Below are positions 33,459 to 38,505 of a stretch of DNA of 64,000 bases, in pieces. Source of the stretch: Candidatus Rokuibacteriota bacterium (GTDB taxonomy: Bacteria > Methylomirabilota > Methylomirabilia > Rokubacteriales > CSP1-6); NCBI GenBank assembly GCA_016866775.1, contig VGLJ01000008.1, forward strand, positions 39,354-103,353. Reading direction: 5' to 3'. Positions within the stretch are counted from its first letter, which is position 1; every line of letters begins with the position of its first letter. The notes under the pieces are model-generated. The model did no database searches, was not told the DNA's origin, and saw nothing but the letters and a program-made list of their open reading frames with translations. The position numbers were made by a program, and so were the translations under genes.

Positions 33459-33983
33459 ATGCGATTCGCATTCATCGTGCTGCTCGCCGTCCTCGCTCCG
33501 TGCGCCGTCGCCGACGCGCAGGGGGGCAAGGCACCCACGCTCGTCATGACCATGGAGAAGGGCGGCCAGGTCACCATCGAGCTCTGGCCCGACGTCGCGC
33601 CGAACCACGTGAAGAACTTCGTCGACCTGTCGAAGCAAGGCTTCTACGACGGCCAGCGCGTGCATCGCGTCGAGCCGAAGTTCGTCGTGCAGTTCGGAGA
33701 CCCCGCCTCGAAGACCAAGCCCATGGACGATCCCGCGATGGGCAGCGGCGGATCCGGCAAGACGCTCAAGGCCGAGTTCAACAAGAAGCCGTTCGACCGC
33801 GGCGTGCTCGGCATGGCGCGCACGAACGATCCCGATTCGGCGTCGAGCCAGGTCTACCTGATGCTCGGCGACGCGCACTTCCTCAACGGCCAGTACACGG
33901 CGTTCGGCAAGGTGACGAAGGGCATGGAGGTCGTCGACAAGATCAAGGTCGGCGACCGCATCAAATCCATCACGGCGCAGTAG
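33459..33983 (+). CDS. Cyclophilin-type peptidyl-prolyl isomerase (exported)
   Basis: Signal peptide, APNHVKNF, HRV..FVVQFGDP, MART..DSASSQ, YTAFGKV. Confidence 0.92.
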   Translation: MRFAFIVLLAVLAPCAVADAQGGKAPTLVMTMEKGGQVTIELWPDVAPNHVKNFVDLSKQGFYDGQRVHRVEPKFVVQFGDPASKTKPMDDPAMGSGGSGKTLKAEFNKKPFDRGVLGMARTNDPDSASSQVYLMLGDAHFLNGQYTAFGKVTKGMEVVDKIKVGDRIKSITAQ

Positions 33984-33995
33984 AGGACTCCCACC

Positions 33996-34430
33996 ATGGC
34001 GCAGACGGCCCGCATCACGCTCGACAACGGCAGCGCGATCGACATCGAGTTCTATCCGAAGGACGCGGCGAAGACCGTCGACAACTTCGTGAAGCTCGCG
34101 AAGCAGGGGTTCTACAACGGACTGACATTCCACCGCGTCGTCCCCAACTTCGTCGCGCAGGGCGGATGTCCGAAGGGCGACGGCACCGGGGGGCCGGGCT
34201 GGACGGTCCCCGCGGAGTTCAACGCGCGCCCGCACGTGCGCGGCACCGTCGCGATGGCGCGCAGCCAGCACCCGGATTCGGCCGGCAGCCAGTTCTACAT
34301 CTGCTACGGCCCCACGCCGCACCTCGACCGCAACTACACGGTGTTCGGCCGGGTCACGAGCGGGATGGAGCACGTCGACACGATCAAGCAGGGCGACAAG
34401 ATGCAGACGGTCGAGATCCAGGAAAGCTGA
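33996..34430 (+). CDS. Cyclophilin-type peptidyl-prolyl isomerase (cytoplasmic)
   Basis: FYNGLTFHRVVPNFVAQGG, MARS..DSAGSQFYI, HLDRNYTVFG. Confidence 0.93.
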   Translation: MAQTARITLDNGSAIDIEFYPKDAAKTVDNFVKLAKQGFYNGLTFHRVVPNFVAQGGCPKGDGTGGPGWTVPAEFNARPHVRGTVAMARSQHPDSAGSQFYICYGPTPHLDRNYTVFGRVTSGMEHVDTIKQGDKMQTVEIQES

Positions 34431-34434
34431 GCCC

Positions 34435-36048
34435 ATGGCCTGGACGCTCCTCATCAAGAACGGCTCGGTGATCGACGGCACGGGCGCGGCGGCACGTCCG
34501 GCCGACGTGGCGCTCGACGGCGATCGCATCGCGGCGGTCGGTCCGGGCCTGCGCGGCGAGGCGGCGCGCACGCTCGACGCCGCGGGGCACGTCGTCGCGC
34601 CGGGCTTCATCGACGCGCATTCGCACTCCGACCTCTTCTACTTCGCGTGCCCGTCGGCGGAGTCGAAGGTGCGCCAGGGTGTGACGACGGAAGTCGTCGG
34701 CATGTGCTCGTTCTCCCAGGCGCCCGTCCGGCCCGGCGAGGAGCAGACCGTTCGCGGATGGGCCGGCGGCATCGTAGGCTCCGACATCTACCTGGATCTC
34801 CGCTGGCAGACGTTCGGGCAGTACCTCGACGCGCTCGCGTCGGTGCGGCCCGCGGTGAACATCGCGCACCTCGCCGGCCACGGCGCGCTGCGCATCGCCG
34901 CGATGGGGTTCGAGAACCGTCCCGCCGGCGCCGACGACATCAAGGAGATGGACCGCCTGCTCGGCGAAGCCATGGATGCCGGCGCGTTCGGCTTCTCGAC
35001 CGGCCTCGTCTACGCGCCCAGCGCGTACGCGAACACCGAGGAGCTGATCGCGCTGGCGAAGGCGATGCGCGCGCGCAACGGGCTTTACTTCTCGCACATC
35101 CGCGGCGAGTCCTCGATGCTGCTCGACTCGATCGCGGAAGCGATCCGCATCGGCGAAGAGGGCGGCGTCGGCGTCCAGGTCTCGCACGTGAAGGCCTCGG
35201 GCAAGGAGAACTGGCCGAAGATCGACGCCGCGCTGCGCATGATCGAGGACGGCAAGGCGCGCGGCGTCGACGTGCTCGGCGACGTCTACCCATACAACGC
35301 CGGCAGCACGAAGCTCGACAACCTCATGCCGGCGTGGGCGCAGGCCGGCGGCATCGACAAGCTCTTGGAGCGCCTCGCCGACCGCGCCGCGCGGCGCAAG
35401 ATCGCCGAGGAGTGTCTGATCGACGGCGAGCGCTGGGGCACGGTCTCGCAGGGCGGGATCGGCTTCGACCAGATCTTCATCTCGATGTGCAAGCGGCGCG
35501 AGCTCGAGGGCCTCAACCTCGCGCAGATCGCGCGGCAATCGGGCATCGCGCCGGTCGACACGCTCTTCAACCTGCTCCTCGAGCAGAAGTGCACGGTCGG
35601 CATGGTGAGCTTCTCCCAGAGCATCGAGAACGTGGCGAAGGTCATCGCGCATCCGTCGCTGATGATCGGCTCGGACTCGATCCCGCTGTTCGAGGGTGAC
35701 GCGGACAAGCCCGGCAAGCCGCATCCGCGCACGTACGGCACGTTCCCGCGCGTGCTCGGAGAGTACGCGCGCGATCGCGGGCTGATCTCGATGGAGACGG
35801 CCGTCCACAAGATGACGGGGATGGCCGCGCAGCGGCTTCGCCTGAAGGACCGCGGTGTGCTGCGCGAAGGCCTCGCCGCCGACGTCACGATCTTCGATCC
35901 GACGACCGTCAAGGACGAGGCGACGTTCCCCGACCCGCACCGCTATCCCGCCGGCATCCCGTACGTGATCGTCAACGGTGCGGTCGTCGTCGATGCCGGC
36001 CGGATGACCGCCGAGCGCGCCGGGCGAATTCTCCGGCGCCCCACGTAG
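34435..36048 (+). CDS. N-acyl-D-amino-acid deacylase (D-aminoacylase)
   Basis: VIDGTG, APGFIDAHSHSD, QGVTT, GFSTGL.YAP, SHIR, SHVK, HPRTYGTFPR. Confidence 0.92.
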   Translation: MAWTLLIKNGSVIDGTGAAARPADVALDGDRIAAVGPGLRGEAARTLDAAGHVVAPGFIDAHSHSDLFYFACPSAESKVRQGVTTEVVGMCSFSQAPVRPGEEQTVRGWAGGIVGSDIYLDLRWQTFGQYLDALASVRPAVNIAHLAGHGALRIAAMGFENRPAGADDIKEMDRLLGEAMDAGAFGFSTGLVYAPSAYANTEELIALAKAMRARNGLYFSHIRGESSMLLDSIAEAIRIGEEGGVGVQVSHVKASGKENWPKIDAALRMIEDGKARGVDVLGDVYPYNAGSTKLDNLMPAWAQAGGIDKLLERLADRAARRKIAEECLIDGERWGTVSQGGIGFDQIFISMCKRRELEGLNLAQIARQSGIAPVDTLFNLLLEQKCTVGMVSFSQSIENVAKVIAHPSLMIGSDSIPLFEGDADKPGKPHPRTYGTFPRVLGEYARDRGLISMETAVHKMTGMAAQRLRLKDRGVLREGLAADVTIFDPTTVKDEATFPDPHRYPAGIPYVIVNGAVVVDAGRMTAERAGRILRRPT

Positions 36049-36057
36049 GAGTCGCTG

Positions 36058-36870
36058 ATGCCCACCGTGAGGCTGCGAAAGGCGTCCGAGTACCCGGAGT
36101 CAGCGCAGAAGCTCTTCGCGCTGTCCAAGCAGTGGTTCAACCACGACTTCGTCGAGCCGCCGGCGATGAGCCGCGTGATGGCGTGGGATCCGGCGTTCGG
36201 CGGTCCGCACGGCCGCGCGATGAAGCGCGCGATGGCGCCGGGCGAGTTCACCCGCGCCGAGAAGGAGATGGTCGCCGCGGTCGTCAGCGGCGTGAACGCC
36301 TGCGAGTACTGAGTCAAGGCGCACACTGCAGCCGGGAAGCTGCAGGGGATGACGGGCGACGCGGCGTGGTACGAGGCCGCGATGGTCGTCGGGATCACGA
36401 ACGCGCTGAACGTCGTTGCCGACGGTCTCACCGAAGCGCGCGCGCTCGGCGCCGGCCTTCCCGATCCGGACGAGGCGCGCGCACCTGCCGGAGCGGCGGC
36501 GGTGTTCGCCGAGATCCGCGCGTTCTACGCGCGCACCGACGTCCCCGTCGCGTTCGGGCTCCTGGCCACCGACCCCGGCTATCTCGCCGACGTGTGGGGC
36601 GCCACGCAGCGCGCGTTCTCCGACAACCGCCTCACGCGCCGGCTGAAAGAGGCGCTGGCGTTCGCGGTGTCGCTCACCACGCGCTCCGGCTTCGGCACCG
36701 CGTTCCACCTCGGCGAGATGCGCCGTCTCGGCGTCGGCGACCGCGGGGTGATGGAAGTCCTCGGCGTGACGCAGATGTTCTCGAGCTACACGAAGATCGC
36801 GGACACGCTCCAGCTCGAGCCGGACATGGGCGACATCGCCCCGGTCGACGGCTCGCCTGCTCCCGGCTAA
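36058..36870 (+). CDS. AhpD/carboxymuconolactone decarboxylase-like two-domain protein, probable selenoprotein (Sec at TGA 36310-36312)
   Basis: ORFs 36058-36312 and 36349-36870 are in the same frame. Readthrough gives KEMVAAVVSGVNACEY-U-VKAH, which is the AhpD CxxCxxxH motif. A SECIS-like hairpin follows. Confidence 0.82.
36313..36345 (+). promoter_or_regulatory. Candidate bacterial SECIS element
   Basis: Stem ctgcagc/gctgcag (36326-36345) with loop cgggaa. The loop begins 20 nt after the UGA and has G at its second position. Confidence 0.65.
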
Positions 36871-37579
36871 GGCGCGGCGTCCCGGTCCGCCAGCACCCCA
36901 CAGCGCGGGTGGCGCGGGAGCACCGACGCCGGGACGTCGGGCGTGATCGGCCCGTGCAGCATCGCGCGGAGCGCCGCGCGCTTCGTCGCGCCGCTCGCCA
37001 GCACGAGCACTTCGCGCGCCGAGAGGATCGTCTGGATGCCGAGGCTCACCGCGCGTGCGCAGACATCGCCCTGGATGACCTCGTCGGTGAGGATGTAGTC
37101 GACCGTCGACGACAAGAGCTCGACCGGGCACGTCGACGTCGCGAAGTCCGCGGGCGGCTCGTGCGAGGCGATGTGAGCGTTCGGCCCGAGGCCGAGCATC
37201 ACGAGATCGAGCCCGCCCGCCTCGGTGATCGCGCGCTCGTAGTCCTTGCACATCGCGGGGAGATCGGCGGCGTCGACCGCGAACGGGCGACAGCGCGCCG
37301 GCTGGACGCCGGCCCAGCTCGCGAACTCCTTCGTGATCTGACGCCAGAAGTAGCCGTCGGACGGCGCGGGAGGGCAGAGCTCGTCGACGCAGAAGACGCG
37401 CATGCGCGTGAAGTCGACGGGCGCCGACGTCTGCTGCGCCCGCATCAGCGCGTACATCCGGCGCGGGGTCCGGCGGGCACCGCCATCGCAAGCTCGGGCG
37501 TCGCGGCCACCCGGGCGCGGAAGAGCTCGGCCGCCGCCGCGGCGAGCGCGTCCGCATCCGCGTAGACGAGAAGCTTCAT
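36867..37579 (-). pseudogene. nagB: Glucosamine-6-phosphate deaminase-like gene, frameshifted near 37470
   Basis: N-terminus MKLLVYADADALAAAAAELF...AVPAG in one frame. RTPRRMY..VDE..LGLGPNAHIASHEP..PASVL in another frame. Confidence 0.75.
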
Positions 37580-37625
37580 GCGCCGGCGCCCTCCCGCGAG
37601 GTGCCCAGCATACGCCGGCCTTGAT

Positions 37626-37643
37626 TATGCTTTTCCGAGCATA
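37626..37643. promoter_or_regulatory. ModE-like operator palindrome upstream of tupA
   Basis: TATGCT-N6-AGCATA, abutting a TAGAGT -10-like box and lying 13 nt before the tupA ATG. Confidence 0.55.
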
Positions 37644-37656
37644 TAGAGTCTGCGGC

Positions 37657-38505
37657 ATGCTCACGGTCGTCCGCCGCCTCGCGCTTGCCGGGCTCGCCGT
37701 GTTGGTGGTCGCCACGCTGCCTTCGCGGGCGCAGACACCCGGCCGGACCGTCATCCTCTCCACGACCACGAGCACGCAGGATGCGGGGCTCCTCGACGTG
37801 CTGGTGCCGATCTTCGAGCGCCGGAGCGGCTACACCGTGAAGACGATCTCGGTCGGCACCGGCCAGGCCCTCGCGCTCGCGGCGCGCGGCGAGGCCGACG
37901 TCACGCTCGCCCACGCCCCCGCGCTCGAGCGCAAGCACGTCGAGGACGGCAAGACGCGGAATCGCCGCCTCGTCATGTGCAACGACTTCGTCATCGTCGG
38001 CCCCGAGGCCGATCCCGCGGGCCTCAAGGGCGAGAAGAGCGCCGTGGCCGCGCTCAAGAGGATCGCCGAGAAGGGCGCGCGCTTCGTCTCGCGCGGTGAC
38101 AAATCAGGCACGCACACGCTCGAGCTCGCGCTGTGGAAGCAGGCGGGCCTGACGCCGGCGGCGCCCTGGTACATCGAATCCGGCCAGGGGATGGGCGCGA
38201 CGCTCGGCATCGCCGACGATCGCGGCGCGTACACGATCACGGACCGCGCGACGGCGCTCGCGTTCGCGAGGCGCGTCAAGCTCAGGGCGATGGTCGAGGG
38301 CGACAAGCCGCTCCTCAACATCTATTCCGTGATGGAGGTCAACCCCGCGAACGGACCGCGGGTGAACGCGGCGGGCGGCAAGGCGTTCGCCGACTTCATG
38401 CTCGCGCCCGAGACCCAGGCCGTCATCAGGACGTTCGGCGTCGACAAGTACGGCCAGGCGCTGTTCGTGCCGATCGGCGGCAAGACCGACGAGGACGTCA
38501 AGTAG
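37657..38505 (+). CDS. tupA: Tungstate ABC transporter substrate-binding protein
   Basis: STTTSTQDAGLL, VGTGQAL, HAP, NDF.IVGP, FVSRGDKSGTH, GQGMG, DRAT. Confidence 0.93.
   Translation: MLTVVRRLALAGLAVLVVATLPSRAQTPGRTVILSTTTSTQDAGLLDVLVPIFERRSGYTVKTISVGTGQALALAARGEADVTLAHAPALERKHVEDGKTRNRRLVMCNDFVIVGPEADPAGLKGEKSAVAALKRIAEKGARFVSRGDKSGTHTLELALWKQAGLTPAAPWYIESGQGMGATLGIADDRGAYTITDRATALAFARRVKLRAMVEGDKPLLNIYSVMEVNPANGPRVNAAGGKAFADFMLAPETQAVIRTFGVDKYGQALFVPIGGKTDEDVK

Follow-up and report, generated by a model that had tools for sequence, protein, structure and literature searches.

We found that a stretch of DNA from a Candidatus Rokuibacteriota bacterium (GTDB lineage Bacteria; Methylomirabilota; Methylomirabilia; Rokubacteriales; CSP1-6) very probably carries a single gene whose in-frame UGA codon is decoded as selenocysteine (Sec). 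The stretch, hereafter the window, comprises 64,000 nucleotides of contig VGLJ01000008.1 (assembly GCA_016866775.1, positions 39,354 to 103,353 of the forward strand), and the gene occupies 36058..36870 of the window on the plus strand. With TGA read as U, it encodes a protein of 270 aa that ends at TAA and is built of two tandem halves of the carboxymuconolactone decarboxylase (CMD)/AhpD type. A 270-aa selenoprotein had been proposed here in an earlier inspection of the letters and their open reading frames (ORFs), made without database searches (the sequence-only reading), and the proposal is now supported by the TGA or Cys found at the same column in homologues, by the conservation of a hairpin behind the UGA and by the Sec machinery of the genome. 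The protein adds a new member, and perhaps a new subfamily, to a kind of selenoprotein that has been known since 2005.

The gene starts with the ATG at 36058, contains the in-frame TGA at 36310-36312 (plus strand, the codon of Sec85) and then stays open in the same frame to the TAA at 36868-36870. As the sequence-only reading had noted, and as the sequence and the ORF listing confirm, two ORFs in a common frame (36058..36312, 84 aa, and 36349..36870, 173 aa) are parted only by this TGA, and reading through it gives the peptide ...VSGVNACEYUVKAHTAAGKLQGM.... A putative Shine-Dalgarno motif, AGGAG (36047..36051, plus strand), stands 6 nt 5' of the ATG and overlaps the TAG stop codon (36046-36048) of the upstream amidohydrolase gene. 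The Pfam CMD model (PF02627) matched two stretches of the translated protein with 61.6 bits (cut-off 23), and the better of the two, residues 56-101, runs across the UGA; the AhpD core domain (TIGR00778, ahpD_dom) matched residues 65-99 with 51.5 bits against 27.8. Because both matches span the UGA at residue 85, the reading of the locus as one gene is supported. Moreover, pairwise differences among 24 sequences at codon positions 1, 2 and 3 were 0.27, 0.25 and 0.41 upstream of the UGA and 0.30, 0.28 and 0.45 downstream. This excess of third-position substitutions on each side of the UGA is that expected of sequence that codes for protein in this frame.

The position of the TGA was then compared among relatives. 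A six-frame search for the protein in 61 genomes (the window genome, G000, and 60 relatives) gave matches in 28 of them, and nearly every full-length match contained one TGA. In the set of close relatives, which consists of 25 full-length genes including that of the window (44-88% identity to the window protein), the TGA stood in the same column in all 25, within the motif C-x-Y-U-[VTL]-x-[AG]-H. One of these genes, L036, comes from an unpublished genome (G011), and without it the count is 24 of 24. A third paralogous clade, of about 30% identity, had the TGA at this column in all four members fetched (loci L055-L058, located at G051:C98, G027:C256, G003:C32 and G028:C193), with the motif C-x-Y-U-I-D-S-H; three of the genomes (G027, G003 and G028) hold a clade-1 copy as well. 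Full-length homologues of 200-275 aa were obtained when 1.84 billion representatives were searched exhaustively with HMMER, and in ten of them, with 21-29% identity (P0253, P0279, P0280, P0287, P0293, P0295, P0316, P0319, P0329 and P0268), the Sec column is occupied by Cys in the motif C-x-Y-C-[IV]-x-x-H. Sec in this family is thus paired with Cys in distant homologues, as the sequence-only reading had expected of a genuine Sec codon. Among the close relatives, no Cys form was found by the six-frame, protein-database and N-terminal-region searches; the matches of the last were fragments, ORFs upstream that terminate at the TGA, and gene models labeled "src" from which the TGA region is missing. 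One further entry, P0122, reads Gly across the TGA region and resembles a low-quality read. The sole other match in the window genome itself (G000:C7:16130-16528) has 31% identity to the Cys-less second half of the protein and contains no internal stop.

A hairpin of the type of a Sec insertion sequence (SECIS) lies at 36326..36345 on the plus strand. Its arms, ctgcagc (36326-36332) and gctgcag (36339-36345), form 7 bp and enclose the 6-nt loop cgggaa (36333-36338); the hairpin starts 13 nt past the UGA, and the loop starts 20 nt past it. This is the same stem-loop that had been picked out in the sequence-only reading, and it coincides exactly with the centroid fold computed for 61 nt from the UGA onward, at -12.4 kcal/mol. 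According to the legend of Figure 2 of a 2026 review (PMC13188914), the bacterial SECIS (bSECIS) model has a loop of 3-9 nt, an upper stem of 4-16 bp, a G within the first two loop positions, a distance of 16-37 nt from the UGA to the loop, and a minimum free energy of at most -7.5 kcal/mol. Compared by hand with these four published criteria, the hairpin agrees with each: its loop is 6 nt long with G at position 2 followed by another G, its stem has 7 bp, its loop stands at 20 nt and its energy is -12.4 kcal/mol.

The conservation of the hairpin is much stricter than that of the gene around it. The 16-nt core GCAGCCGGGAAGCUGC, with its conserved 5-bp stem (36328-36332 paired with 36339-36343), was nucleotide-invariant in all 25 genes, wobble bases included; elsewhere in these genes, third codon positions differed at 41-45%. 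When the 22 invariant columns with four- or six-fold degenerate codons were considered, a single codon was used in three of the four inside the hairpin and in none of the 18 outside it. Ala91 was encoded by GCA in 22 of the 25 genes, and GCA accounted for 33 of the 1007 Ala codons overall in these genes. The third clade has a different hairpin, GCCGC-CGUGAU-GCGGC, again with a spacing of 20 nt, and its central pair is C-G in place of A-U, owing to a synonymous GCA-to-GCC change on one arm together with a Leu-to-Arg change on the other.

The genome carries a complete set of Sec genes, for which the sequence-only reading had suggested a search: selA, selB, selC and selD each scored above the curated cut-off. 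Genes selB (381 bits), selA (592 bits) and the tRNA-Sec (70 bits) lie together within about 4.3 kb on the same strand of contig C43 (G000:C43:30823-35067, outside the window), and ARAGORN assigned the anticodon tca (UCA) to the tRNA. The selD gene (335 bits; G000:C31:24695-25639, also outside the window) itself encodes a selenoprotein, with its own in-frame TGA, in ...CAGUASK..., and a palindromic hairpin whose GAUC loop stands 21 nt past the selD UGA. The spacing between UGA and loop is therefore equal within 1 nt in selD and in the window gene, and the hairpin sequences differ. A search of the genome for the hairpin of the window gene, defined by the loop CGGGAAG, a stem of 5 bp or more and a TGA in frame at 16-37 nt upstream, found no instance besides this gene, and the hairpin is not a SECIS sequence shared within the genome. 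As for the relatives, selA was detected in 54 of the 61 related genomes, and in 20 of the 23 genomes, apart from that of the window, in which the TGA form occurs. A global reassignment of TGA was considered as well and was rejected, because the genome encodes RF2 (508 bits) and because 11 of the 25 homologous genes use TGA as their own terminal stop.

The protein has an all-helical fold of the AhpD/CMD class. An AlphaFold2 model built on a 32-sequence alignment reached a mean predicted local distance difference test (pLDDT) of 94.3 and a predicted template modeling (pTM) score of 0.92, and its best Foldseek matches in the PDB were the AhpD/CMD-family structures 2prr, 2oyo, 2q0t, 2pfx, 3c1l and 6k40, with AhpD itself (1knc/1gu9) also among the matches. 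In the profile search, 2ouw was the best-matching relative of solved structure and aligned with positions 1-130 at E = 1.5e-23. The first half of the protein (residues 1-130, 36058..36447, plus strand) is the putatively active CMD/AhpD unit and contains Glu70, Cys82, Sec85 and His89. The second half (residues 131-270, 36448..36867, plus strand), on which PDB profiles matched the CMD proteins 2cwq and 7y4r, is a degenerate CMD unit. The two halves aligned with each other in BLASTP (E = 1e-4, 26% identity over 90 residues), and this alignment sets C82-E-Y-U85-V-K-A-H89 against S210-G-F-G213-T-A-F-H217, encoded at 36685-36708; the view of the sequence-only reading that the second CMD domain lacks the redox Cys was thus upheld.

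The residues of the presumed active site are strongly conserved. Glu70 (36265..36267, plus strand), which stands 12 residues before Cys82, was invariant in the 25 Sec forms and at least 90% conserved in alignment A2 of 32 sequences, in which the adjacent Lys69 was invariant. Cys82 (36301..36303, plus strand, TGC in the window gene), the proposed resolving Cys of the CxxU motif, was invariant in the 25 Sec forms (TGC in 23 and TGT in 2) and at least 90% conserved in alignments A1 and A2. His89 (36322..36324, plus strand), four residues past Sec, completes the CxxUxxxH motif; it was likewise invariant in 25 of 25 Sec forms and at least 90% conserved in A2. The spacing Glu-12-Cys-x-x-Cys-x-x-x-His is what we take to be that of E118, C130, C133 and H137 in Mycobacterium tuberculosis AhpD, with C133 presumably the attacking residue; the putative equivalence of the four conserved positions was drawn from the range of the profile alignment and from this numbering. 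By this analogy, Glu70 may act as a proton relay. M. tuberculosis AhpD is a thioredoxin-like reductant of the peroxiredoxin AhpC.

Considering these features, we propose the following scheme. The UGA at 36310-36312 would be decoded as Sec during translation, the mRNA hairpin at 36326-36345 recruiting SelB with Sec-tRNA(Sec) while the ribosome stands at the UGA, and selenium would in this way be inserted into the protein. The single chain would then consist of two tandem CMD units, the first of which would hold the redox center E70...C82-x-x-U85-x-x-x-H89, and the degenerate second unit would probably serve as a structural partner, taking the place of the neighboring subunit of single-domain CMD proteins. 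Sec85 may be the nucleophile, attacking either a peroxide or, in a partner protein (a peroxiredoxin, for example), an oxidized Cys or a disulfide, after which Cys82 would resolve the intermediate to form a selenenylsulfide. This would be regenerated by an upstream reductant that may be a thiol or ferredoxin-linked. The activity of a peroxiredoxin reductase, which the sequence-only reading had associated with the motif, is likewise a putative one here.

Several results weigh against the reading of this locus as an AhpD-type selenoprotein gene. Three genomes with the TGA form, G001, G011 and G027 (68, 95 and 93% complete), gave no selA. The column of the Sec holds Gly in P0228 and Trp in P0229, two database proteins in which these residues may be real or artifacts. 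The fold energy of the hairpin was no better than that of shuffled sequences (61 nt, z = 0.69; 150 of 200 shuffles folded at least as well), and because the fold does not stand out from shuffled, GC-rich DNA, the hairpin cannot be argued from energy. An Rfam scan of 36200-36500 at E <= 10 returned no SECIS family, only two unrelated matches with E = 0.17-0.18. The support that covariation gives to the RNA structure has limits as well. The five core pairs were paired in 28 of 28 sequences (central pair AU in 22, CG in 4 and GU in 2), with the four outer core pairs imposed by the pattern used to locate the sequences of this alignment (A4), so that free tests are confined to the central core pair and the outermost two pairs of the stem. 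In favor of the structure, the covariation score was 0.175, against 0.069 +/- 0.019 for shuffles (reached by 0 of 500) and at most 0.082 with a slid partner column; since the sequences are related, this shuffle control overstates the significance. The protein also fell below the cut-offs of the narrower models: 54.1 against 81.8 bits for TIGR01926 (peroxidase-related enzyme), which all 32 members of alignment A2 match at E <= 0.001, 30.6 against 175 bits for NF041238, and 17.6 against 510 bits for NF041537 (ArsM/AhpD selenoprotein), and it had no match to NF041047 (GSU3128 family) at E <= 0.1. Finally, in an all-against-all comparison of flanks of about 1.5 kb, no family of flanking ORFs occurred in more than 4 of the 25 loci, and no partner was indicated. 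As for the hairpin, it is the conservation of the TGA and of the hairpin core, not the fold energy, that appears to lift it above chance. As for the family, by these tests the protein belongs to the broad class of CxxU selenoproteins with a CMD/AhpD domain and to none of the narrower curated models tested.

How else could the TGA be explained? Readthrough in which near-cognate tRNAs or a suppressor insert Trp, Cys or Gly, and in which the hairpin acts as a general readthrough or pausing signal, would agree with the Trp of P0229 and the Gly of P0228, and the binding of SelB by the hairpin is a prediction. However, the column corresponds to the second Cys of CxxC in homologues, the classic place of Sec, where Trp or Gly would be catalytically dead. 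Moreover, the genome has a complete Sec system together with RF2, and the hairpin fits the bacterial SECIS model in its geometry and the genome's own selD in its spacing. We therefore give this kind of readthrough a very small probability. An even smaller one is given to the TGA as a true stop that separates two small genes, one for an 84-aa protein and the other for a CMD protein of roughly 173 aa. This is how gene callers read the locus: the best 120 of 1326 database matches (E <= 0.001) were truncated proteins of 161-238 aa that cover only the part after the UGA, pieces of 84 aa from the N-terminal part stand as separate entries (e.g., P0195), and the ATG at 36349 could act as a start. Yet a true stop would sever the active site between Cys82 and His89, and the CMD/AhpD domain match crosses it. 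The relation of frame between the two ORFs was retained in 25 of 25 relatives, Met98, which is the ATG of the 173-aa ORF, was Met in 12 of the 25 only, and the Cys-form homologues are single chains of 200-275 aa. That the gene is a pseudogene, or that TGC or TGT of a CxxC gene was misread as TGA, is scarcely credible. Such a misreading needs one base only, and assemblies of metagenome-assembled genomes (MAGs) contain errors, but 24 further independent assemblies and four distant paralogues show the TGA as well. The identical TGA in these assemblies excludes the sequencing error that the sequence-only reading had named as a possible pitfall. In addition, the searches of the close relatives gave no Cys form, and the third-position excess in both halves marks purifying selection, against a pseudogene.

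If the Sec-decoded gene is accepted, the chemistry of its product is a separate question. We consider an AhpD-like thiol/selenol oxidoreductase to be the probable function, with moderate confidence. The main alternative is a genuine selenoprotein with another chemistry of the CMD fold, either reductive dehalogenation of the Bmp8 type or decarboxylation, and this seems unlikely. PDB profile and fold matches to the Bmp8 debrominase (6ohi/6ohj) and to haloacid dehalogenases (5gzx and 3bjx, on the second half) agree with it, as does the score of 14.7 bits for AhpD proper (TIGR00777), below the cut-off of 191.95. On the other hand, the constellation E...CxxU...H is present, the best sequence matches are to proteins described as "AhpD core" or peroxidase-related (2ouw with E = 1.5e-23, 6k40, 2oyo and 3c1l), the dehalogenase matches are confined to the Cys-less half, and a decarboxylase would have no need of Sec.

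Selenoproteins of this class have been described before, as the sequence-only reading had correctly stated. AhpD-like (COG2128, CxxU) and CMD domain-containing (Pfam02627, CxxU) selenoproteins were reported from the Sargasso Sea in 2005 (PMC1088965), and the study of Global Ocean Sampling (GOS) data counts AhpD-like 1 and 2 selenoproteins in hundreds (PMC2398784); there, "AhpD-like 2" (pfam02627, CxxU) denotes the same class as the CMD-like selenoproteins (PMC2398784). A table of the 2026 review gives AhpD-like (TIGR01926), CMD-like (PF02627), AhpD-related (NF041238) and a distant AhpD homolog (NF041047), all with CxxU (PMC13188914), and BSepDB has a page for the AhpD-like family (PMC13326102). 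In the literature found under Methylomirabilota selenoproteins and Rokubacteria selenocysteine, supplementary lists not covered, there was nothing on this protein.

With the CMD-like selenoproteins, the window protein shares the Pfam domain and a CxxU motif in which Sec is the second redox residue; as far as the published descriptions go, it also shares with them the existence of Cys homologues and a SECIS located just downstream, within the coding region. It differs from them in its 270 aa with one active and one degenerate CMD unit and, compared with published lists at the level of their descriptions, in the near-invariant AAGKLQG after Sec and the near-invariant hairpin. The AhpD-like family TIGR01926/COG2128 has CxxU in a helix of the AhpD type and two CMD-like lobes per chain, and its Cys-form relatives 2oyo, 2pfx, 2prr, 3c1l and 6k40 were the best PDB matches in two stretches and among the best folds. 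These relatives are about 185-197 aa long, against 270 in the window protein, and their query-normalized Foldseek TM-scores were only 0.49-0.53, with a root-mean-square deviation (rmsd) of 9-10 A over the whole chain. M. tuberculosis AhpD (1knc, 1gu9) has the same all-helical AhpD/CMD fold (TMt 0.73), and the profile of the window protein aligns with it along the helices of the active site (query 64-117, chain 113-165). In contrast to the window protein, it has Cys in the place of Sec and a length of 177 aa; moreover, the active unit is the N-terminal half in the window protein, and no AhpC or lipoamide-system partner is linked to the latter by gene context. The 138-aa protein of 2ouw, an "alkylhydroperoxidase AhpD core" from Rhodospirillum rubrum whose function is not determined, superposed in Foldseek with an rmsd of 2.4 A over 128 columns and aligned its C-S-Y-C-A-H-S-H with the Sec motif; it consists of one unit, has Cys where the window protein has Sec, and lacks the second, degenerate unit. 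Another relative is NF041238 (AhpD_rel_CFYUT, listed as hypothetical protein 1 in the Sargasso Sea study), which matched locally at residues 61-91. Its motif C-F-Y-U-T is very similar to the C-x-Y-U-[TV] of the window family, and its architecture differs, with the motif at 215-245 of a model of 357 positions.

Based on these comparisons, we tentatively hypothesize that the protein represents a distinct, unlisted subfamily of Sec-only, tandem-CMD selenoproteins with one active and one degenerate unit, whose SECIS would have been frozen since before the split of the paralogues; the possibility is a real one, somewhat short of even odds. Under this hypothesis, there would be at least three paralogous clades among the relatives searched, with no Cys form found above about 40% identity, and the nearest named database proteins are labeled Methylomirabilota or Rokubacteria. 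The SECIS would also fix the peptide AAGKLQG, and the neighboring gene of the ferredoxin:thioredoxin reductase (FTR) type seen in some lineages could encode the reductant. Regarding that neighbor, we observed an ORF resembling the catalytic chain of FTR (PF02943) next to the Sec gene in 4 of the 25 loci, which makes it a candidate reductant. With the loci oriented so that the selenoprotein gene is on the plus strand, these ORFs are L028:558-1025, L030:466-930, L035:808-1494 and L034:3443-3781, and that of L035 scored 78.9 bits with PF02943. In the window genome, the sole PF02943 match lies on another contig (C6:65973-66224).

The other neighbors of the window gene say little about its function. 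Upstream, at 33459-36048 on the plus strand, two tandem genes for cyclophilin-type peptidyl-prolyl isomerases (Pfam Pro_isomerase) are followed by a hydrolase gene of the Amidohydro_3 family. The sequence-only reading had described two cyclophilins and a D-aminoacylase: the cyclophilins were recovered, and the hydrolase gave no equivalog above cut-off, which leaves its identity at the level of the amidohydrolase family. Downstream, a convergent gene on the minus strand (36867-37775) overlaps the stop codon of the selenoprotein gene by 4 nt; its product is NagB/6PGL-like, resembling glucosamine-6-phosphate deaminase or 6-phosphogluconolactonase with scores below the cut-offs. The amidohydrolase neighbor recurred in two loci of the same genus only, and the downstream gene weakly in one. 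Because the neighbors are not conserved beyond the genus, the context is uninformative on function and carries no functional signal. The arrangement of cyclophilins and amidohydrolase that the sequence-only reading had pointed out is thus present here and does not serve as a functional clue.

The main value of the finding lies in the correction of an annotation error that recurs across public databases. The sequence-only reading had predicted that standard annotation would split the gene, and this was borne out: in public databases, the protein exists only as separate pieces of 84 aa and of roughly 173 aa. Where the best 120 of 1326 matches bore names, these were "AhpD family alkylhydroperoxidase" or "carboxymuconolactone decarboxylase family protein", and the source was given as Rokubacteria or Methylomirabilota. 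Five gene models, all of one source (P0106, P0130, P0131, P0072 and P0055), do join the N-terminal to the C-terminal part and leave out a segment of about 60-130 residues in the region of the TGA, as though an intron had been called there to bypass the stop. No new kind of biology is opened by this protein. It adds one selenoprotein to a lineage whose selenoproteomes are reportedly very large; the 2026 review cites a Methylomirabilota MAG for which 63 selenoprotein genes were predicted (PMC13188914). Moreover, the family offers a clean natural case of an RNA signal constraining a protein sequence, in which one arm of the SECIS changed synonymously and the other compensated for it by the replacement of Leu by Arg.

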